Part shown: piece after piece, positions 4,420 to 27,869 of the stretch
Layout: the number at the start of each line of letters is the position of its first letter
Position numbering within the stretch: position 1 is the stretch's first letter
Source of the DNA: a virus
IMG/VR virus record: IMGVR_UViG_3300032246_000761
Location: 5,099 to 69,098 of that record
Strand: one strand, 5' to 3'
Length of the DNA: 64,000 bases
Program-made: the position numbers and the translations under genes
Notes under the pieces: generated by a model
Databases searched by the model: none
Seen by the model: only the letters and a program-made list of their open reading frames with translations
Told to the model about the DNA's origin: nothing

Positions 4420-4538
4420 TGATTGATTATATATTGAGTATAATTGAAAATATAGGTTTAAAACTTCAAAATTGGGCTTGGCAAAAAAGATGGGGTAAAG
4501 CCAAAGGTCATGGAAGAATACATTATAAAATCAAATGA
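4419..4538 (+). CDS. Small hypothetical protein (39 aa, not in ORF track)
   Basis: MIDYILSIIENIGLKLQNWAWQKRWGKAKGHGRIHYKIK*; TAATG and ATGA overlaps at either end. Confidence 0.5.
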   Translation: MIDYILSIIENIGLKLQNWAWQKRWGKAKGHGRIHYKIK

Positions 4539-5104
4539 ATATATTTTATTTACATAAAGATCCTATCATAGCAGCAGAAATGTCTTGCGATAAACATGTT
4601 TGTAAAATGATTATTGAATCAGCTCAAATGCTATCGACAGCACACAGAGTATTAGATGGTACAGAATTTACCGATAAGACAGCTAATGGTCGTAATATAA
4701 AAAGATGGAAACATCCTGATATCGAATTAGACAAAATATTATACAAAGCAAGTCATATTAAACACCCAAGTACACAATGGGTAATGTATAATTTACAGAA
4801 TTATGTATGGTTGTATAGACACATGATGGCATTACACTCACAATTTAAATTGAGATATAATAAATCTGAAGATCACATGACTATACAAAAACTAGGTACA
4901 ATATTAAAAGATGCTCCTAAAAGATTGCCTGTAAGAGATTCAAAAGAACCTACACCAGCAATGCCAGATGAATGTAAAGTACCAGGAGATTCAGTAGCTA
5001 GTTATAGAAAATACTATATAATGAAGAAAAAAGATTTTGCTACTTGGAAATATCCAGCAGTAATGCCAAACTGGTACAAAAAAGGTATTGAAAATGCCAT
5101 CTAA
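4535..5104 (+). CDS. Pyrimidine-dimer DNA glycosylase (endonuclease V/DenV family)
   Basis: MNIFYLHKDP...DKHVCKMIIESAQMLSTAH, HPSTQW and PAMPDECK...SYRKYY family motifs. Confidence 0.75.
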   Translation: MNIFYLHKDPIIAAEMSCDKHVCKMIIESAQMLSTAHRVLDGTEFTDKTANGRNIKRWKHPDIELDKILYKASHIKHPSTQWVMYNLQNYVWLYRHMMALHSQFKLRYNKSEDHMTIQKLGTILKDAPKRLPVRDSKEPTPAMPDECKVPGDSVASYRKYYIMKKKDFATWKYPAVMPNWYKKGIENAI

Positions 5105-5959: not shown

Positions 5960-6271
5960 ATGCCAATATATAGTTTTGAAAACATTAAAACAGGTAAAGA
6001 ATTTACAGAACATTTAACTATGGCTGAATTAGATGCCTATTTAAAAAAGAATAAAAATATTAGACAAGTATTCACATCTCTAAATATAGTAGGTGGCGTG
6101 TCAGGATTAACACATAAACAAGATGGTGGTTGGAAAGATAATCTACAAAGAATAGCAGAGGCACATCCAGGTTCACCATTAGCTGATAGATATAAAAAGA
6201 AATCTATTAAAGAAATTAGAACAAAAGAAGTAATAAACAAACATAGGAAACGAAATGCCAGCAAACGATAA
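5960..6271 (+). CDS. FmdB-like small regulatory protein (zinc-ribbon Cys absent)
   Basis: MPIYSFENIKTGKEF start and GWKDNLQRIAEAHPGS, typical of T4-like phage members. Confidence 0.65.
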   Translation: MPIYSFENIKTGKEFTEHLTMAELDAYLKKNKNIRQVFTSLNIVGGVSGLTHKQDGGWKDNLQRIAEAHPGSPLADRYKKKSIKEIRTKEVINKHRKRNASKR

Positions 6272-6656: not shown

Positions 6657-7097
6657 ATGAACATAGCACAATTAAGAGAACAATTAAAGATTGATGAAGG
6701 CGTTAAATATGAAATTTATAAAGACCATTTGGGTTATGATACATTTGGTATTGGCCATTTAGTAGTTAAAGAAGATTCTGAATTTGGTAAACCAGTCGGA
6801 ACAAAAGTTAGTGAAGATAGAGTAAACGAAGTATTTGAAAAAGATGTACAGAAGATGATCAAAGAAGCAAAGATATTATTTCCAAATTTTGATAGTTTAC
6901 CAGAAGAAGTACAACAAGTTATAGTTAATATGACCTTTAATATGGGTAGACCAAGATTATCTAATTTTAAGAAATTTATATCATATATTAATGAAAGCAA
7001 GTGGGAAGAAGCATCAAAAGAGATGTTAAATAGTGCTTGGGCTAAACAAGTTGGTAAAAGAGCACAAAGATTGAGTGATAGGATTAAAGTTATATAA
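6657..7097 (+). CDS. T4-type lysozyme (GH24 endolysin)
   Basis: LKIDEG...YKDHLGYDTFGIGHL catalytic E/D/T region, NMTFNMG, and SAWAKQVGKRA. Confidence 0.9.
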   Translation: MNIAQLREQLKIDEGVKYEIYKDHLGYDTFGIGHLVVKEDSEFGKPVGTKVSEDRVNEVFEKDVQKMIKEAKILFPNFDSLPEEVQQVIVNMTFNMGRPRLSNFKKFISYINESKWEEASKEMLNSAWAKQVGKRAQRLSDRIKVI

Positions 7098-7140: not shown

Positions 7141-7785
7141 ATGGTTAAAATAAATGATACAGCACCAAATTTTGTAGCCCACACATCACAAGGATTGGTA
7201 GATTTTTATAGTTATATAGATAATAGTTGGGCAATATTATTCTCGCATCCAAAAGCATTTACGCCTGTTTGTACTACTGAATTAGGCACATTACAGAAAT
7301 TACTTCCAGCATTTAAAGACAGAAATGTAAAAGTAATAGGTTTATCAGTTGACAGTCCAGATAATCATAACGTTTGGTTAAATGATATAAAAGAAACACA
7401 AGGGTATTTACCTGAATATCCTTTAATTACAGATACAGATAAAATAATATCTAAATTATATGATATGATACATGAGAATGCTAGTGATACAATGACAGTA
7501 AGAACAGTATTCATTATTGGTCCAGATAAAAAGATTAAACTTAAAATGGATTACCCTGCTAGTGCTGGTAGAAATTTTGACGAGATATTGAGAGTAGTTG
7601 ATTCATTACAATTAACTGCTAATTACAAAGTAGCAACACCAGCAAATTGGGTACAAGGTGAAGATGTTATTATTAGTGCGGCTATTAATGATGAAGAAGC
7701 AAAGAAATTATTTCCTCAAGGCTGGACAACACATAAACCATATTTAAGAACACTAAAAGATCCTACACAAGAAACTAATGCCTAA
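7141..7785 (+). CDS. 1-Cys peroxiredoxin (Prx6 family)
   Basis: FSHPKAFTPVCTTE, YPASAGRNFDEILRVVDSLQLT and VATPANW motifs. Confidence 0.95.
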   Translation: MVKINDTAPNFVAHTSQGLVDFYSYIDNSWAILFSHPKAFTPVCTTELGTLQKLLPAFKDRNVKVIGLSVDSPDNHNVWLNDIKETQGYLPEYPLITDTDKIISKLYDMIHENASDTMTVRTVFIIGPDKKIKLKMDYPASAGRNFDEILRVVDSLQLTANYKVATPANWVQGEDVIISAAINDEEAKKLFPQGWTTHKPYLRTLKDPTQETNA

Positions 7786-8473
7786 AGAATTTAAATTTTT
7801 AAAAGTTGACGCTAGTGTTTTACCTAATACAAAAGGTAAAAATATAGATGGTATAAGATTTTACGAGATAGATGGTAAGTCATATCCATCAGTTACTTCA
7901 GTATTATCTTTACTTAAAAAAGATTCATTACAAGAGTGGAGAAACAAAGTTGGTGAATCAGTTGCCAATTGGGAAATGGGTAGAGCTGCTAGACGTGGTA
8001 AAGCAATGCACACTTTAGTTGAACAATATTTACAAAATCAAACACCATCAGTTAGAGATGTATTACCATTAGGTTTATTTAAACTGATTAGACCTTATGT
8101 AGATCAAATCGATAACATAAAAATGTTAGAGACTATTATGTACAGTAAAAAATTAACACTTGCTGGACAGGTAGATTGTATTGCTGAATATAATGGTAAA
8201 TTATCAGTAATAGATTTCAAATCTGCCAATAAACAAAGAGAAGAAGGTTGGATTGAAAATTACTTCTTACAAACAACAGCCTATTCTATGATGTATGAAG
8301 AATTATATGGAGAAAAAGTAGAACAGCTGGTTATTATATTAGCTTGTGAAGATGGTGTTGCTCAGACATTTATTAAAAATAGAGCAGATTACGAAAAGAA
8401 ATTAATAGAGTCAGTTGACAATTTCTATAAATATTTCAACGATAAACAGAATTTGACGTTGAAGAATAGTTAA
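7778..8473 (+). CDS. PD-(D/E)XK exonuclease
   Basis: YPSVTSVL, RGKAMH, AGQVDCI, IDFKSA and YFLQTTAYSMM motifs. Confidence 0.85.
   Translation: MPKEFKFLKVDASVLPNTKGKNIDGIRFYEIDGKSYPSVTSVLSLLKKDSLQEWRNKVGESVANWEMGRAARRGKAMHTLVEQYLQNQTPSVRDVLPLGLFKLIRPYVDQIDNIKMLETIMYSKKLTLAGQVDCIAEYNGKLSVIDFKSANKQREEGWIENYFLQTTAYSMMYEELYGEKVEQLVIILACEDGVAQTFIKNRADYEKKLIESVDNFYKYFNDKQNLTLKNS
8426..8433 (+). promoter_or_regulatory. T4-type late promoter upstream of the tmRNA
   Basis: TATAAATA about 45 nt before the tmRNA acceptor piece. Confidence 0.5.
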
Positions 8474-8476
8474 TAA

Positions 8477-8688
8477 TTAGTTAGGACCAGGGGGCGGTAC
8501 CCTGCCACTCCACCATTTATAGAATGAAATATAGGGGGTGGAAATAGAATCGACTACTAAGTAAACCTATTTGGAGTTAAATCGCTGATAGCGTACTATC
8601 AAATCATAGATGCTAACGAAAGTTACGCTCTTGCTGCCTAGTAATAGGTAACGGCGTTGGCCTACACGTGGCAACAGAAGTAGGCCGC
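8477..8688 (+). ncRNA. ssrA: Two-piece (circularly permuted) tmRNA, tag (A)ANESYALAA
   Basis: T-arm CAGGG-GGCGGTA-CCCTG (8488-8504) and CCACTCC-A-CCA (8505-8515) lie upstream of the 5' strand GGGGTGG (8535-8541). They form a 7-bp acceptor stem with a G3:U70 pair. Tag ORF gct aac gaa agt tac gct ctt gct gcc tag at 8612-8641. Ends are approximate. Confidence 0.92.
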
Positions 8689-8717
8689 TTGACAAATCAA
8701 TCAAATTAGTATATAAT
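8689..8717 (+). promoter_or_regulatory. sigma70 consensus promoter
   Basis: Perfect TTGACA-N17-TATAAT. Confidence 0.8.
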
Positions 8718-8748
8718 ATAATATACATTAACTAGAAAAGGAATAAAC

Positions 8749-11667: not shown

Positions 11668-12441
11668 ATGATTAAAAATATATTAATAGCATTGTGGTTG
11701 TTAACAAGTGTGGCGTTGGCCAACCCTATAGATGATAAATGCCCACAACATGTTTATAAAGGCGCACCAGTTAGTCCTATACATATAGATGATCAGTATC
11801 TATGTAGAACTAATTATGCTGTACATTATAGATACGATACAAGAACAGCAGAATATGTTGTTGAACATGTAACTAAAAAATCAGTATCAGGCAAAGCAAA
11901 AAGACAAGACGATTTTAGACCAGATCCTGAAATTAAAAAAGAACACCAATCATTATTATCCGATTATAAAGGACACCCTTATGATAGAGGTCATTTAGCC
12001 CCTGCTGGTAATAATACTCAAAACGATAAGATTATGAGTGAAAGTTTTTTACTATCTAACATGGTGCCACAAGAACCAAATAACAATAGAGGTATTTGGA
12101 AACAATTAGAAACCTATGTTAGAGAATGGGCATTAAAAGGTATGGATATCTATGTTGTAAGCGGAACAATTTACAGTAGAAACAGTAAAACAATAGGTGA
12201 TAATAAAGTAGGCGTACCTGATAAGATATGGAAAGTTATAATAGATAAGAATACAGAACAATCTATTGCTTTTATATTTCCTAATACTGAATTGCCAGTA
12301 GGTGATTTATTAAAATATGCTACTAATGTAAAAGTTGTGGAAGATTATACTGCCATTAAATTTATGCCAAGTTTAACAGATGTAAAAAATAAAACTACTT
12401 TTAACATTGAAAATTGGCCTGAATTAAGTTTAATTAAATAA
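11668..12441 (+). CDS. Secreted DNA/RNA non-specific endonuclease (NucA/EndoG family)
   Basis: YDRGHLAPA active site, SFLLSNMVPQ...NNRGIWKQLE, and a signal peptide ending in ALA. Confidence 0.92.
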   Translation: MIKNILIALWLLTSVALANPIDDKCPQHVYKGAPVSPIHIDDQYLCRTNYAVHYRYDTRTAEYVVEHVTKKSVSGKAKRQDDFRPDPEIKKEHQSLLSDYKGHPYDRGHLAPAGNNTQNDKIMSESFLLSNMVPQEPNNNRGIWKQLETYVREWALKGMDIYVVSGTIYSRNSKTIGDNKVGVPDKIWKVIIDKNTEQSIAFIFPNTELPVGDLLKYATNVKVVEDYTAIKFMPSLTDVKNKTTFNIENWPELSLIK

Positions 12442-20246: not shown

Positions 20247-21731
20247 ATGAGTACAATATATGACTCACTGGATACTACGGTATTAAAAAAAGCAGGTGAT
20301 TACGTTTTAAGTGAAATATCTTTAATATCTTATGTAAGCGGTGATAGAAGCAGCGAACCATCCAAAGTATCAATCCAATCACAAGTAGTTGATTTAAACA
20401 TTTATGAAAGTATATTCAATAAAACTTTATCAGGCAATATTGTAGTTGTTGATACGGAAAATGTTATTGGTAATTTGCCTTTGACAGGTAATGAAAGAAT
20501 AGAATTTAAATTATATACACCATCATCAGGCAGAGGTTATGATTTTACGATTAAATCAGGCCATCCAATGTACATTTATAAAATATCTAACAGAACTGAA
20601 ATATCACCTAGATCACAATTATACACATTGCATTTTTGTAGTAAAGAAATGTTAATAAATGAACAAAAATCTGTTTCTTACGCTTCATTAGATACTTACT
20701 CAAATATGGTTGCTGATATAGTAAGAGATTCTGATTTATTGTCAACAACAAAAAATGTTTACTATGAACCATCTATTGGGTTACGTAAACATGTTTTTAA
20801 TAATGTAAAACCATTTGATGCTATAGATCAATTATCTTTAGTTACTCAAAGTTTAAAGTTTGACAATGCTGGTTATTATTTTTATGAAACATCATCAGGT
20901 TTTAATTATAGATCATTAGAGAGTATGATGGCAGTAGAACAAAACACAGCAAGACCTGTTGTAGGTAGATTTTTACCAAAACCATATAATGTAAGACAAG
21001 GTGGTAATAAAGACATACTAAGTGAAATGCAAATTGTATCAGACTTTAGAGTTGTAAGTCAATTTGATACACTAAAAAATTTAAGAAACGGCGTCTATGG
21101 TAGTAAGTTAATTACACATGATCAATTAAACAAAACATACGAAGAAACTACTTTTGATTATCACATAGAATATGAAAAGAATTTTCATACTGAATATGGC
21201 AAAAATGGTTCTAAAACAGACAATCAAGGTATACTACCTTTTTATTTAATGGAAGGCAAAACATTATCCGATCATCCAGACGGCACAATTTATGTTTGGC
21301 CAAACACTTCAAATACACATTATACACCACAGAATAATCCAGTAGAAGCGGCAGCATATAAAGATATATTACAAAAGAGATTATCACAGCGATTGGCGTT
21401 TACTACATTGACAATTAATATAACAGTACCAGGTTATACTGGAATACAAGCAGGCGATCTAATTAACTTCGAGATGCCTTCATACGAACCAGCTAACAAA
21501 TCCAACCCATTGGATAGAGATCCTTACCTATCAGGACGATATTTAATAACTTCGATAAGACATAAACTCGACCGTAAGAAAAGCACACATTGGATGATTT
21601 TAGAGTGTATGAAAGATAGTGTTCATACTTCTTACCCAGAAGAAAATATAGACACATTTATTAATAAAGAAAGAGTAGAGGCAGGAGCAATAGATTTATA
21701 CGAATTAGATAAAATTGTATTTAACTCTTAA
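20247..21731 (+). CDS. Baseplate hub protein (gp27/late-control-D-like)
   Basis: IYESIF...SGNIVVVD, LPLTGNE, YYFYET, and TVPG...AGD...LSGRYLITSIRH; lies between gp53 and gp5. Confidence 0.65.
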   Translation: MSTIYDSLDTTVLKKAGDYVLSEISLISYVSGDRSSEPSKVSIQSQVVDLNIYESIFNKTLSGNIVVVDTENVIGNLPLTGNERIEFKLYTPSSGRGYDFTIKSGHPMYIYKISNRTEISPRSQLYTLHFCSKEMLINEQKSVSYASLDTYSNMVADIVRDSDLLSTTKNVYYEPSIGLRKHVFNNVKPFDAIDQLSLVTQSLKFDNAGYYFYETSSGFNYRSLESMMAVEQNTARPVVGRFLPKPYNVRQGGNKDILSEMQIVSDFRVVSQFDTLKNLRNGVYGSKLITHDQLNKTYEETTFDYHIEYEKNFHTEYGKNGSKTDNQGILPFYLMEGKTLSDHPDGTIYVWPNTSNTHYTPQNNPVEAAAYKDILQKRLSQRLAFTTLTINITVPGYTGIQAGDLINFEMPSYEPANKSNPLDRDPYLSGRYLITSIRHKLDRKKSTHWMILECMKDSVHTSYPEENIDTFINKERVEAGAIDLYELDKIVFNS

Positions 21732-22166
21732 CTTATGAGAATTGCTCAGAGTCCGATCGCTCCGAGACCGAAATTTTTTAGAGCTATGTAGATATTACTA
21801 TATTGGCTGGCCACCTTACAATATAAGAGAGGATGGCCCACTAAATATTAGAGATTAACTATGAAACAAGTGAATATATAATACAAATGAATATAGATAT
21901 CATAAGACTATGTAAGATATAATCTCCGATAGGTTATGTAAGATCATATTCCAATGGTATCAAAGGAGGCCAACGAGATGGTACAGAGTTTAATATATCT
22001 AAGAGATAAAGTCATGCTAGCGCATGCCTGGTTCATAGATAATATAGAATTGGCAAGTGTTTTAGTATTTACAGCGGTGGCCAGATGGCCTGCGTAGAAC
22101 TGGAGAAATGGTTAAATATGACGTATGTTGAAGTGTTATTATCAGGCGAGCTAACGAGAAAATTTT

Positions 22167-23150
22167 ATGTATAACGAAAACTTTATGGGTCTATCCGGCT
22201 TCGTCTGGTTCGTGGGCGTTGTAGAAGATCGTCAAGATCCACTCAAAGCAGGCCGTGTTCGAGTAAGAGCATTGGGTCATCATACAGATCATTTAGATTT
22301 ATTACCTACGGCCGATTTACCTTGGGCCAATGTTATGTTACCTATAACGGCCAGCGGTGTATCTGGGATTGGCCAGTCGGCGACCGGACTACTCGAAGGA
22401 AGTTGGGTGTTAGGATATTTTAGAGATGGTGATAGAAGGCAAGAACCGGTTATATTAGGTAGTTTACCAGGAAGGCCTACTCAAGCAGCAAATAACCCAC
22501 AGGGCTCAAATAAAGGATTTTCTGATCCAAACGGGGTTTACCCAAAATATATAAATGAACCAGATGTTAATCGTCTGGCCGTTAACAATGGTGAGAAACC
22601 ACATCCAAGTCTGGCCACAGATGCGGATACAAGGGTTACAGGAATACAGGCCTATAACTCGGAATGGGATCAGCCGGCCAGTACCTACGGAGCAATCTAT
22701 CCATACAATCAAGTATACGAAAGCGAATCAGGTCATATCGTAGAGTTTGATGATACGCCAGATGCGGAAAGAATCCACATCCGCCATAGATCCGGTACTC
22801 GCCTTGAAATCACGGCCAATGGCGACCAACTGGCCATTACCAAAGGCGACAACTATATAATCATAGATGGTAACAATAAGGTCTATATCAAAGGCAACTC
22901 CGATATCACTGTACAAGGCAATGCTAATGTAAAGGCCGGAGGGGAGGCCAATGTTCTGGCCAATACCATCAACGCAACGGCCAATACCAATATCAATATG
23001 ACGGCCTCTAATGTCAATGTAACAGGCAACGTATTAATTAATGGAACGTTGGACGTGATGCAAAACGTTAGCTTAGAGGCCGATCTATTAGTACAAGGCG
23101 ACACATCACTAGAAGGCGAGAATACAATACACGGTTACGATAAACCATAG
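22167..23150 (+). CDS. gp5: Baseplate central spike gp5 (OB fold plus beta helix, no lysozyme domain)
   Basis: WFVGVVEDRQDPLKAGRVRVR, LPWA, YPYNQVYESESGHIVEFDDTP and C-terminal V-x-G-N repeats. Confidence 0.92.
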   Translation: MYNENFMGLSGFVWFVGVVEDRQDPLKAGRVRVRALGHHTDHLDLLPTADLPWANVMLPITASGVSGIGQSATGLLEGSWVLGYFRDGDRRQEPVILGSLPGRPTQAANNPQGSNKGFSDPNGVYPKYINEPDVNRLAVNNGEKPHPSLATDADTRVTGIQAYNSEWDQPASTYGAIYPYNQVYESESGHIVEFDDTPDAERIHIRHRSGTRLEITANGDQLAITKGDNYIIIDGNNKVYIKGNSDITVQGNANVKAGGEANVLANTINATANTNINMTASNVNVTGNVLINGTLDVMQNVSLEADLLVQGDTSLEGENTIHGYDKP

Positions 23151-23333
23151 AGACGGCCAGACAGTAGCTGGAGCAAAAAGTTAATCTATAAAGTGATGTA
23201 ATGGTGTATCACAACTAAGACAGGCCGTTATTCTAAAGCAGGCCCTTATGATATTCCAATAGGAAACCTCGGAAGCTCCAGAACCAGTTAAAAGATTGAT
23301 AGTATCTTTAGCGTAAAAAAATTCCCTGGTATA

Positions 23334-23362
23334 TTGACATTGTTCCAGGTTTGATGTATAAT
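23334..23362 (+). promoter_or_regulatory. sigma70 consensus promoter
   Basis: TTGACA-N17-TATAAT. Confidence 0.75.
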
Positions 23363-23369
23363 GGTGGTT

Positions 23370-23585
23370 ATGAAATATCTTATTATACTCTTGTTATTCT
23401 GTTTCAATGTTATGGCAGGAACATCTACTGGTACATTAACGGCCACTGCTACGGTATCTCCTAAAATAGTACCTACTCATATTACAGTATCTAATGGTAC
23501 TATCATTACAAAGTATCTTCCTATTGGCACTAAGGTTACTACAGTGATCAACGGCAATACAACAACTATTACTTTCATCTACTAA
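23370..23585 (+). CDS. Small secreted Thr-rich beta protein
   Basis: MKYLIILLLFCFNVMA signal, then GTSTGTLTATATV. Confidence 0.55.
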   Translation: MKYLIILLLFCFNVMAGTSTGTLTATATVSPKIVPTHITVSNGTIITKYLPIGTKVTTVINGNTTTITFIY

Positions 23586-23593
23586 ATATTGGC

Positions 23594-23926
23594 ATGGCCG
23601 ATATTATTACTTTAACAGATAAAGCAAAAGCACATCTAATTAAACAGATGGCCATTCATAGAAAGAGTCATGTCTTTTTACAGGCCAAAGGTGGTGGTTG
23701 TGCGGGGTTTAAATATGACTGGTCTTTTCCTGAAGAGGCTGATTTAGATAAACAAGACACCTATATTCAATTAGATGAAAATTATCAATTAGTAATAGAT
23801 CGTTATAGTGCGTTTAAATTAATAGGTATGAATATTGATTACATTGAAAGTATATCAGGTTCTACTTTAGAGATCAGTAATCCAAACGCTACATCTACAT
23901 GCGGATGTGGTGAATCATTTAATTAG
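23594..23926 (+). CDS. iscA: A-type Fe-S cluster carrier (HesB/IscA/SufA family)
   Basis: ITLTDKA, GGGCAGFKY and NPNATSTCGCGESF motifs. Confidence 0.93.
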   Translation: MADIITLTDKAKAHLIKQMAIHRKSHVFLQAKGGGCAGFKYDWSFPEEADLDKQDTYIQLDENYQLVIDRYSAFKLIGMNIDYIESISGSTLEISNPNATSTCGCGESFN

Positions 23927-23928
23927 TA

Positions 23929-24156
23929 ATGAAAGATAAATTGAAAAATCGTATTATTAGATGTTCAATTTATGTATTAATATTTTTTATAATTACTTCT
24001 GTATTATTAGGTTGTTCTAATGTACGAATGGCCTGCACTATGAATGAAAGTAAATATATAGATAAAAAAGACGCTAAAGAAAACACACCTACAATCTCTG
24101 ATAAAGCAAAAGACTGTGTTAATAATCCAACTGTAATTGTATTTAAAGAATTTTAA
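23929..24156 (+). CDS. Putative lipoprotein
   Basis: Hydrophobic helix ending in a lipobox-like LLGC. Confidence 0.55.
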   Translation: MKDKLKNRIIRCSIYVLIFFIITSVLLGCSNVRMACTMNESKYIDKKDAKENTPTISDKAKDCVNNPTVIVFKEF

Positions 24157-24722
24157 GGATTGTTTGGCGACTTAGGTACATCAAATATAAAAGCAATACG
24201 TTCTGCTGGCCCTATATTTTCTGCCATGTGATTCTTCTTATTATCAAACCAAAAGAATACTCCTGGTTCTACTGTAATAATTTCTTTAGTTGAATCGTCA
24301 TCGCCATCGTCCCAAACTGTATAACGATATAGACCTTTAATAGATAAATGATAACGATCTTTAGTTAGGTAATAATTGCCTTGATCAATATGTTTGCCTG
24401 TAATTTTACCTGCTGGTGTATTTAAAAAAGCACAACGGCCTACTTTTAATGATTTAGATGCCAACCACTGTTGAATGGCGATATGTCTTGTTGTTGCTTC
24501 TGTTGGTACACAGATTTCTGTATCACCTATAAATTCTTCTGGTTTAGAAATACCACCCATTACTAATTGTAGTACATCTGCTGTTACAAGTTTACTATGA
24601 GGGTCTTGACGATCAACACCTTTTAAACGGCTAGCATTACCCCAATCTTGAGGATATTGTTCCAACTGTTCACGTATTTTAGATACGTCTATATTCTTTT
24701 CAATAATACGAATGTTTTTCAT
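24153..24722 (-). CDS. Aspartyl/asparaginyl beta-hydroxylase-family 2OG-Fe(II) oxygenase
   Basis: KHIDQGNYY...RYHLSI, WFDNKKNHMAEN and RIAFIFD motifs. Confidence 0.85.
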   Translation of the reverse strand: MKNIRIIEKNIDVSKIREQLEQYPQDWGNASRLKGVDRQDPHSKLVTADVLQLVMGGISKPEEFIGDTEICVPTEATTRHIAIQQWLASKSLKVGRCAFLNTPAGKITGKHIDQGNYYLTKDRYHLSIKGLYRYTVWDDGDDDSTKEIITVEPGVFFWFDNKKNHMAENIGPAERIAFIFDVPKSPNNP

Positions 24723-26129: not shown

Positions 26130-27869
26130 TTAAAAATTTTGTCTAAATCCTATTAGAAAATTTCTACCTAATTGAGAATACCCATCAGGTCTTTGATAAA
26201 TTTTATCAGTAATGTTATTTAATTTACCATAAAGAATTGTATTACCTAATGTATAATCAGCTCCTAAATCAAAAGTACTAACTGCTGGCATATTTTTATT
26301 ATCAAAAGTAACGCTATCAACATCTATATGAGAACCATAGTAATTCCAATTTGCCTTTAAAGATGTATTTTTAATTTTGTTATAAGATGTTTCTAAATTG
26401 TTTACCCATTTAGGACGTCTTACCAATTCATTACCATTACTATCTTCAGCAATTAGAAATGTATTTGAGTTTTTAAAGTCTATATCTGATATACTATAAT
26501 TCAATTTAGTTTCAATACCTTTTCTTATACTTGTTCCAGTATCGTTTACATAGGTATTATTTTTATAAACAAATAAATGTTTTATATCACTTTGAAATAA
26601 TGCGATATCTATAATCTTATTTTTATAACCTACTTCATATGTAACGCTTTCTTCAGGTATTAATTTTGAATTACCTAAGAATCCATAATTGTCTTTACCA
26701 TACATTTCATATAACGTAGGCATCTTATAACCCGTTGATACACTAGTTCTAAATCCATTGTAGTAAGCACCAACTCTTTCAGTTAATTGATTATCAAAAT
26801 TACTAGGCATATCATAACGGCCTCCGGCTGTTACAAAAAAATCTTCTGATAAAAATTTAGTTGCATTAGTATAATAAGCATGATCTTCTCTTTTCTTATC
26901 CACAGAAGAAAAATAATCATCTATGTTAGTATTAAATTTACCATGAGTAAATGTGTGTTCTGAACCAAGACTAATATCCGCAAACGTATGAATAGTTGTT
27001 TTAGTTAATAATGTTTTATTGTTACTATCGTAAGTATCTTTTACTCCATTTTTATTATAATCTCTATTATGATCGGTATTATTAATTGTTAACTCATTAT
27101 CTTTATTTTGTAATGATAGATATTGATTTGAAAATTCGTATAGTCCATTATAGTTGCGAGTATCTTCTCCTATACCATCTAAATTAGTATGATTGGTTTG
27201 ATTTATAAAATTTGATTTTAAATTATAACCACTATCTAATAATGATTGAGTTTGAAACATATAGTTTCTAAAATGATAAGGATCTTTTTCAGAACCATTA
27301 GGATAGACACTTATATTTTTACTACTTTCATTTTCGCCTTGAAAGTCTATTATAGTTTTACCTATTGTTTGTCCTAATTTAATTTTTTCATTCCATGTAT
27401 TATTAGAACCATAAGATAGATCAATCCAATTCTTATCATTAGGTTGAGTTACCATATTTACAACCCCACCAATTGCATCTGGTCCATAAACACTACTCAT
27501 AGGACCTTTTATAATTTCTAATGATTGAACACCTGAAAAACTATGTTGGGTTAAATCATCGCTTCCTGTTGGTGTACTGGCATCTTTAATAGGAATACCA
27601 TTTAAAGTAAATAATGTATGATTTGAATTTGTACCACGAGTAAAGGTACTACTGAATTGTTGTTTAGGTCCGCTTTGAATTATATTTAAACTAGATAATG
27701 ACTTTATATTGTTTGGTTCTATAACGTCATAAGAATACGTTAATGGTAGATGTTCCTCTGCCGTTCTAAATGCTTGTATTGTAATTTGTGGAATATTTTC
27801 GTAAGAATATTGTGAATACGAAGTATTGGTTACAAATATGAATAATAATAATTTAATGAATAACCGCAT
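26130..27869 (-). CDS. TonB-dependent outer-membrane receptor (BtuB-like)
   Basis: Signal peptide; plug motifs TRGTNSNHTLFTLNGIPI and LEIIKGPMSSVYGPDAIGGVVN; barrel motifs TGYKMPTLYEMY, GNSKLIPEES and NNITDKIY...GY...GR; terminal Phe. Confidence 0.92.
   Translation of the reverse strand: MRLFIKLLLFIFVTNTSYSQYSYENIPQITIQAFRTAEEHLPLTYSYDVIEPNNIKSLSSLNIIQSGPKQQFSSTFTRGTNSNHTLFTLNGIPIKDASTPTGSDDLTQHSFSGVQSLEIIKGPMSSVYGPDAIGGVVNMVTQPNDKNWIDLSYGSNNTWNEKIKLGQTIGKTIIDFQGENESSKNISVYPNGSEKDPYHFRNYMFQTQSLLDSGYNLKSNFINQTNHTNLDGIGEDTRNYNGLYEFSNQYLSLQNKDNELTINNTDHNRDYNKNGVKDTYDSNNKTLLTKTTIHTFADISLGSEHTFTHGKFNTNIDDYFSSVDKKREDHAYYTNATKFLSEDFFVTAGGRYDMPSNFDNQLTERVGAYYNGFRTSVSTGYKMPTLYEMYGKDNYGFLGNSKLIPEESVTYEVGYKNKIIDIALFQSDIKHLFVYKNNTYVNDTGTSIRKGIETKLNYSISDIDFKNSNTFLIAEDSNGNELVRRPKWVNNLETSYNKIKNTSLKANWNYYGSHIDVDSVTFDNKNMPAVSTFDLGADYTLGNTILYGKLNNITDKIYQRPDGYSQLGRNFLIGFRQNF

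Follow-up and report, generated by a model that had tools for sequence, protein, structure and literature searches.

Why should one four-letter motif be packed into 1.9 kb of an AT-rich phage genome, and what might read it there? The question arises at gene 5 (gp5), which encodes the baseplate hub and tail spike of a T4-like phage represented by a 69-kb viral contig, IMG/VR record IMGVR_UViG_3300032246_000761 (29.5% G+C [GC]; estimated 46% complete). We analysed positions 5,099 to 69,098 of that record, a stretch of 64 kb that we call the window (WIN in sequence comparisons) and whose numbering is used throughout. A first-pass annotation, made from the letters alone, had counted about 30 GGCC sites by hand between 21809 and 23686 and had suggested a methylation-marked packaging site or origin. 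Here we propose, with a probability of about 0.35, that this GGCC array is a cis-acting element that marks a zone of replication or recombination and is read by a GGCC-specific factor.

The array itself stands up to counting, as all of the sites listed by hand are present at their positions. These 30 sites are drawn from only 101 in the window and occupy 3% of its length (binomial p = 2e-21), and they compare with 3.3 expected from the local base composition (40.5% GC) or 5.1 from dinucleotides. Among all 256 tetramers GGCC is the most enriched in the island, and the other tetramers made up wholly of G and C are not enriched (CCGG 6, GCGC 1, CGCG 0); the excess is specific to GGCC and not to G+C in general. 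Windowed counts over the contig identify gp5 as the only hotspot of its kind, with 16 sites in the top 1-kb window. Outside the island the excess is just 1.24-fold by a Markov model, and the 14-kb block from gp25 to the fibre gene, where the first-pass annotation had noticed about three sites, holds exactly 3 between 30501 and 45424. The island coincides with a peak in G+C, which reaches 0.495 per 200 nt in a broad rise (~21200-23700) that runs across gene borders. The near-inverted motifs said to bracket the core are present (21770-21780 and 23314-23324; 11 nt, 91% complementary), but they form one of 22 similarly weak inverted pairs in 1.7 kb of AT-rich sequence and are unremarkable as brackets.

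Is the signal in the protein, the codons or the DNA? When the synonymous codons of gp5 are shuffled at constant codon usage, 5.5±1.9 GGCC result, and none of 2000 shuffles reaches the 18 that the gene carries. Put differently, gp5 uses 18 of its 29 silent opportunities for GGCC (62%), compared with 69 of 952 in the other 78 open reading frames (ORFs) of the contig. Fifteen of the 18 sites lie in the xxG|GCC frame, and each of the 15 GCC alanine codons is preceded by G. Beyond the gene, the island minus gp5 contains 12 GGCC where 1.02 are expected, and stretches without a called ORF contain 5 where 0.46 are expected. Because the sites occupy all three reading frames and non-coding DNA, the signal acts at the DNA level, as had been supposed from its passage through intergenic DNA and gp5 codons alike, and the enrichment survives correction for local GC and codon usage. 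The array also extends over at least one transcription-unit border, at a perfect sigma-70 promoter (see the table).

To learn whether the array is peculiar to this phage, we searched viral contigs with gp5 and obtained 47 loci. The gp5 match carries at least 10 GGCC per kb in 24 of them and at most 3 per kb in 12. GGCC ranks first among gp5 tetramers in 17 of the 27 loci looked at, and its excess beats all 2000 synonymous shuffles in 13 of 23 full-length gp5 genes, the window's included. Many relatives retain the array at the same locus, down to ~50% protein identity, and diverged lineages share the shape of its profile, which rises ~500 nt before gp5 and falls ~1250 nt after the gp5 start. 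In the 86-kb relative G001, gp5 is the top 1-kb window (17 sites). The same holds, though weakly, for the complete 141-kb genome of Pelagibacter phage Mosig (6 sites; peak not significant against shuffles), the closest named phage, which shares gene order with the window and has a gp5 of 52% identity. A second hotspot, found in G001 only, lies in a gene for a 1300-aa collagen-like protein of G-x-y repeats (L061 407-4309) and comes about via Gly-Pro codons; as a protein-level effect of the repeat, it was rejected as a comparable array. The flanks of rich lineages mostly carry 1.1-3.6 GGCC per kb (0.56 in L008), compared with 0.3-1.0 in others, and in L026 and Mosig the local peak is not accompanied by a genome-wide excess.

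Site-by-site comparison argues that these clusters are maintained. In a codon alignment of the 23 gp5 genes, 64 columns have GGCC in at least one sequence and 8 columns have it in 11 to 16 of the 23. Where both amino acids of the codon pair are conserved between two rich lineages, GGCC is retained at 71-92% in 12 of 15 pairs (the others being WIN-L011 with 50% and two pairs involving L005 with 14% and 25%), whereas equivalent control tetramers are retained at 23-37% in more distant lineages and 54-64% in closer ones. It follows that silent sites at large have been replaced over time while GGCC has persisted. In eight rich gp5 genes, which are related, so that the counts are not independent events, GGCC fills 81 of 142 possible frame-2 sites (AGCA 21, AGCG 11, one-off states rare), 45 of 69 possible frame-0 sites and 10 of 12 frame-1 sites. 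Possible sites in rich genes are bimodal, either 'on' or in an AT-rich ground state. The array thus looks to be held by purifying selection in those relatives that keep it.

Other lineages have shed it. One clade of six gp5 genes in our tree (86-93% mutual identity) carries 1-3 GGCC per gene against 3.6-5.5 expected, and none of the six exceeds its shuffle mean; L016, a further locus that clusters with this clade, was excluded because it contains an N. Among 82 former sites in the five GGCC-poor genes tallied, AGCT stands at 15, CGCC at 14, AGCC at 10, GGCA at 8 and GGCC at 2. No palindrome is consistently enriched in this clade as a replacement motif; CGCC and some 6-mers were rejected in that role, reflecting shared ancestry among five sequences that are 86-93% identical. 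Of the 19 sites present in L022, the 91%-identical sister L024 retains 6, and it has added none. L005, which is 85-94% identical to the window from upstream to gp5 codon ~130, departs from it at 11 of the 44 positions within GGCC; the corresponding figures are 81 of 781 for all remaining positions (p = 0.006) and 28 of 287 for the remaining G/C positions (p = 0.009). Outgroup states in six gp5 columns indicate that the loss was in L005. These low-count rows are scattered among rich clades on the gp5 tree, which has a midpoint root and unresolved deep forks, and at least three reductions of the array would be the parsimonious reading. This piecemeal loss of sites is consistent, we infer, with pressure of a restriction type in some hosts. 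Restriction-site avoidance of this sort would account for the purged relatives (the GGCC-poor clade and L005); the window and most relatives, however, show the opposite sign, a local enrichment under apparent purifying selection. Phage KVP40 (L088, 13 kb) has 0 GGCC in the eight genes around gp5, and P-TIM40 (L087, 16 kb) a single one in the eight genes counted, in cpeT; at 41-45% GC yet almost GGCC-free, both give what looks like strong avoidance.

The array sits in a gene that is unusual in two further respects. With 45% GC, gp5 has a third-position G+C (GC3) of 0.39 (C3 0.245 and G3 0.150, against 0.069 and 0.070 in 31 other ORFs) and a strongly atypical codon usage (ATC 0.50 vs 0.05, GCC 0.60 vs 0.11), and its GC3 is still 0.30-0.33 after removal of all codons that touch GGCC. 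GC3 is 0.31-0.41 in all 23 gp5 genes, those of the window and of 22 relatives whose proteins are 43-78% identical to the window's. In T2 (0.22 vs 0.19-0.28), P-TIM40 and KVP40, gp5 has the GC3 of its neighbours; on these comparisons the rise is confined to this phage group. No tetramer is more depleted in rich gp5 genes than AGCC (18 vs 47.5), and GGCT is depleted too. Several AT-rich words are rarer across codon borders than in synonymous shuffles (ATAA, TAAA, AAAT, TATAA and ATAAA in GGCC-poor gp5 genes; ATAA alone in rich ones), which suggests selection against AT runs in gp5. An overlapping or antisense gene was considered and rejected, as no alternative-frame open run consistently beats synonymous shuffles (at most 3 of 11 relatives per frame, in different places).

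In addition, gp5 is a place where lineages have exchanged sequence. WIN and L005 are 90-94% identical up to +393 and 60-74% identical thereafter; WIN and L001 are 74% identical up to +302, 86-90% from +302 to +702 and 65% beyond. Codon-based comparison gives the same picture of these junctions as nucleotide identity. L005 and L012 switch identity at ~+300 to +500, and L010 and L011 combine an upstream protein of 38% identity with gp5 codons 1-130 that are 95% identical. Thus gp5 has at least four recombination junctions within it or at its margin.

How might the array work? In the mechanism that we propose, a GGCC-specific protein, probably a dimer, would recognise the sites in duplex DNA; its gene may lie in the half of the phage genome that the contig does not cover, or in the host. 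The array would concentrate the binding, nicking or cutting of this reader on gp5, which would thereby become a start zone for replication or recombination where T-even phages have oriE, and the gp5 junctions and the GC3 rise would follow from the reader's activity. We favour a replication or recombination zone because junctions cluster in gp5 and because gene 5 houses oriE in T-even phages. The match in position with T4 oriE, already pointed out in the first-pass annotation, is borne out by the T2 record, in which repEB and repEA, annotated as 'oriE replication initiation protein', run antisense within gene 5. The likeness comprises the same gene, the same neighbours (gp53, then gp5) and a DNA-level feature within the gp5 coding sequence; unlike the array, T2 gene 5 has neither a GC3 rise nor an enriched tetramer.

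Several results weigh against this proposal. Among the 11 relatives tested, gp5 contains no conserved antisense ORF, and there are no iterons, only short, scattered repeat families of 2-3 copies. Antisense promoter-like sites occur in 12 of 23 gp5 genes against 6.3 expected, and 11 of the 12 lie on one conserved protein stretch (NIQVD..VN, which reads NINMTASNVN in the window) that accounts for them in large part; an antisense early promoter as in oriE was rejected. With the defining parts of oriE absent, the array would be something that works at the same place, not a member of that class. At 1.9 kb the array is also much broader than known origin or pac site clusters. The GGCC-poor clade keeps a high gp5 GC3 (0.37-0.41), so the GC3 layer does not depend on the array, and the gp5 junctions could reflect selection for the swapping of spike modules and not a mechanical hotspot. 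A Chi-like hotspot was set aside, since GGCC is palindromic and shows no extended asymmetric consensus (GGCCA, TGGCC, GGCCG and CGGCC are all enriched).

Searches for reader genes also count against the proposal. Six-frame searches for methyltransferases (PF00145, PF01555 and PF02086) gave 0 matches in the contig, in the contigs of 3-4 relatives per family and in complete Mosig; Vsr (PF03852) likewise had 0 in 5 contigs, and the NgoPII-type GGCC restriction enzyme (PF09521) 0 in the contig and those of up to four relatives. HaeIII-type enzymes (PF09556) also had 0 matches, in a search that was uninformative as its positive control matched no genome. The phage contigs searched for reader genes are 28-55% complete, and the sole complete genome, Mosig, was searched for the three methyltransferase families only and has a weak array that is not significant against shuffles. 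On the host side, the host may reasonably be taken to be a freshwater SAR11 bacterium. The contig carries a permuted tmRNA (transfer-messenger RNA) gene of alphaproteobacterial type, whose best two-piece matches (87-91% identity) are in two alphaproteobacterial genomes of ~1.2 Mb and 29-31% GC, and 16 of the 20 public runs listed as containing words of the window are labelled freshwater or lake metagenome, most of them with a small share. All 20 are available as contigs, none of them from RNA, and the four compared with the window showed no points at which molecules start or stop, which contigs would not reveal in any case. The tmRNA gene (two-piece type, 8420-8732, tag ANESYALAA) matches the annotated SsrA of Mosig in position. 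A C5 methylase is present in one of five host-like small genomes, where M.HhaI matches over its full length and M.HaeIII over the catalytic half only.

The main rival, which we hold to be possible but doubtful, sees the array as a by-product of biased repair: gp5 would be a recombination hotspot, heteroduplex repair would favour G/C, with GGCC-directed very-short-patch-like repair in some lineages, and the sites would have no function of their own. This would accommodate the junctions inside gp5, the broad G+C peak over gene borders, the depletion of AGCC and the GGCC-richer flanks of rich lineages. It has a model in the Dcm/Vsr system of E. coli, which raises one short palindrome (CCWGG) and depletes its neighbours, as AGCC and GGCT are depleted here; but the very-short-patch effect in E. 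coli is genome-wide, whereas the array is a 2-kb island, and neither Vsr nor a C5 methylase, nor any cognate methyltransferase, was found in the contigs searched. The transition neighbours of GGCC are not specially depleted (one-off states 7/25 in rich and 16/47 in poor genes), the excess outside the island is slight, GGCC is not in excess in the two host-like ~1.2-Mb genomes (observed/expected 0.89-0.97 by the Markov model), and the local peaks of L026 and Mosig come without a genome-wide one. An unlikely alternative is that the array is a self-targeting site cluster at which a GGCC-specific nickase or endonuclease, from the unsampled half of the phage genome or from the host, breaks phage DNA at gp5. 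Breaks there would seed recombination-dependent replication and drive the exchange of gp5 modules between co-infecting phages; the array would be a 'break-coded origin' written in silent codon positions, to be purged on meeting hosts whose defences cut GGCC. Quite unlikely, in our judgement, is a gate set by the methylation state of GGCC, whether on cutting by terminase, as at P1 pac, or on the firing of an origin, in the manner of GATC at oriC; methylation-gated packaging is less likely than a replication or recombination zone. As in the GATC clusters of oriC (bound by SeqA) and P1 pac, a short palindrome of a methylase-recognised kind lies far above chance at one locus, here in the position of oriE. 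Those clusters, however, span roughly 160-250 bp and depend on Dam, whereas the array is ~8-12 times wider, is written through coding sequence and has no methyltransferase of the three families in the contig, the relatives' contigs or complete Mosig; the lone C5 methylase in the host-like genomes is HhaI-like, and T4-like phages package by headful and are not known to use a unique pac site. A table in PMC6329791 lists freshwater bacteria with GGCC methylase/endonuclease pairs. PMC9516812 gives GANTC as the methylated motif in Pelagibacter metagenome-assembled genomes and reports no restriction-modification systems in those of Pelagibacterales. The string GGCC occurs 0 times in the main text of the pelagimyophage paper PMC7029224, and in the literature on GGCC in phages or SAR11 and on restriction-site enrichment we found no description of such an array.

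Could the sites act in RNA, or simply have come with the gene? We think it very unlikely that the motifs shape the structure or stability of the gp5 mRNA, or that rare G/C-ending codons throttle a low-copy virion protein. Codon usage in gp5 is indeed atypical, the AT-rich words ATAA, TAAA and AAAT (poor genes) and ATAA (rich genes) are depleted across codon borders, and the island folds with a mean z-score of -0.87, as opposed to -0.25 outside it. That folding signal is weak, however, and the sites span several transcripts (they lie 5' of the putative gp5 promoter and continue beyond a separate sigma-70 promoter), use all three frames and are conserved where other silent sites are not; codon de-optimisation, for its part, leaves the G before every GCC codon unexplained. 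Highly improbable is a composition artefact or recent import, in which gp5 would have come from a higher-GC donor and GGCC would ride on G+C and on alanine and glycine content. The GC contrast between gp5 and its genome might seem to invite it, and the nearest non-pelagiphage relatives of gp5 are in Vibrio and Aeromonas phages of 41-45% GC. The excess nevertheless survives the local-composition, Markov and codon-shuffle controls, the other all-G+C tetramers are not enriched, and KVP40, an architectural relative, has 0 GGCC in 13 kb. Moreover, GC3 has been kept across the 22 relatives, and gp5 is therefore at equilibrium and not a decaying import; the recent import that the first-pass annotation had raised against its own reading is contradicted by the data.

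The features discussed here are collected in the table. The DNA before gp5, described earlier as a 435-nt gap, is not empty but holds a conserved small ORF and a conserved 69-nt gp5 leader. In 8 of the 19 loci compared, a small ORF that encodes the motif DKV(M/V)LAH stops 70 nt short of gp5; elsewhere this place is taken by a different ORF, of 63-87 aa. The product of the window's small ORF has a hydrophobic C-terminal half and matches no Pfam or other family. The leader is conserved in 20 of 20 lineages, the GGCC-poor ones and Mosig included, and more so than the flanking coding DNA, with GCG-A and AAAT invariant and its two boxes ~30 nt apart. No RNA structure is supported for it (4 pairs, 0 compensatory) and it matches no Rfam family, so that a promoter or operator is the simpler reading; from its conservation, the leader may be a gp5-specific one. 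More widely, no Rfam family reaches its gathering score in 21000-24500, and no terminator is supported after the upstream tail gene (fold z-score -0.14). At the trailing edge of the array, orf74 and the first 107 nt of the IscA-like gene have 4 GGCC where 0.31 are expected, and the rest of the IscA-like gene has 0; only ~40%-identical genes of Hyphomicrobiales type matched the IscA-like protein.

Table. Features of the GGCC array, its surroundings and other annotated genes, in window coordinates.
Feature	Position	Strand	Remarks
GGCC array, 30 sites	21809..23686	none	all three reading frames and non-coding DNA
Tail/baseplate protein gene	20247..21731	+	phrog_350 6.1e-85; 2 GGCC vs 0.79 expected
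Small conserved ORF, 47 aa	21954..22097	+	internal ATG at 21978; 3 GGCC sites; ends 70 nt 5' of gp5
Conserved gp5 leader, promoter-like	22098..22166	+	GCGTA box, AAAT, second (G/A)CGTA box
gp5, baseplate hub / tail spike	22167..23150	+	Pfam Gp5_OB 1.2e-28; phrog_430 4.7e-94; OB domain and beta-helix, no lysozyme domain; array core, 18 sites
Recombination junctions in gp5	22460..22660	none	WIN/L005 junction near 22560
L001-like block	~22469 to 22869		right-hand junction outside 22460..22660
Perfect sigma-70 consensus promoter	23334..23362	+	TTGACA-17-TATAAT, 12/12 matches; predicted to drive orf74 and the IscA-like gene
orf74	23361-23585	+	trailing edge of array
IscA/HesB-like Fe-S protein gene	23594-23926	+	Pfam Fe-S_biosyn 3.4e-16; trailing edge of array
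'DNA binding protein'	4535-5104		partial PHROG/Pfam annotation; no link to GGCC
'Transcriptional regulator'	5960-6271		partial PHROG/Pfam annotation; no link to GGCC
PD-(D/E)XK nuclease	7778-8473		partial PHROG/Pfam annotation; no link to GGCC
DNA/RNA non-specific endonuclease	11668-12441		Endonuclease_NS 1e-49; no link to GGCC

The rest of the window is that of a T4-like phage (gp48, gp53, tail protein, gp5, gp33, gp59, gp32, gp2, gp4, baseplate hub and tail tube), with late-promoter TATAAATA boxes immediately 5' of several genes and an order of gp48, gp53, tail protein and gp5 that it has in common with KVP40; the annotation is partial and covers 40 of 79 ORFs against PHROGs and 20 of 79 against Pfam. 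A stand-alone lysozyme gene (6657-7097) fits a gp5 without a lysozyme domain, and a peroxiredoxin gene (AhpC-TSA, 5e-29) lies at 7141-7785. The variable block after gp5 includes a phage-borne gene for a TonB-dependent receptor (Plug and beta-barrel, 579 aa; 26130-27869, minus strand), which adjoins two 2OG-Fe(II) oxygenase-like genes and an IscA-like gene. CGCG occurs 0 times in the 69-kb contig, where the Markov model expects 15.6, 0 times in the 141 kb of Mosig and once in the 86 kb of G001, compared with 17-18 per 80 kb in the two host-like 1.2-Mb genomes, and TCGA is strongly depleted in the contig (34 vs 179 expected). The depletion of these two words looks like restriction-type avoidance peculiar to the phages.

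T4-like phages of SAR11 and their cyanophage cousins are among the most abundant viruses in water. If our proposal is right, the array would give a concrete locus at which replication or recombination may begin in SAR11's T4-like phages, corresponding in position to oriE of T4. It also indicates the extent to which silent sites can be put to use for a signal in the DNA, with 62% of the possible silent positions of gp5 taken up. Finally, that some lineages preserve the array and others erase it site by site suggests a trade-off between the signal it carries and host defences that cut GGCC.

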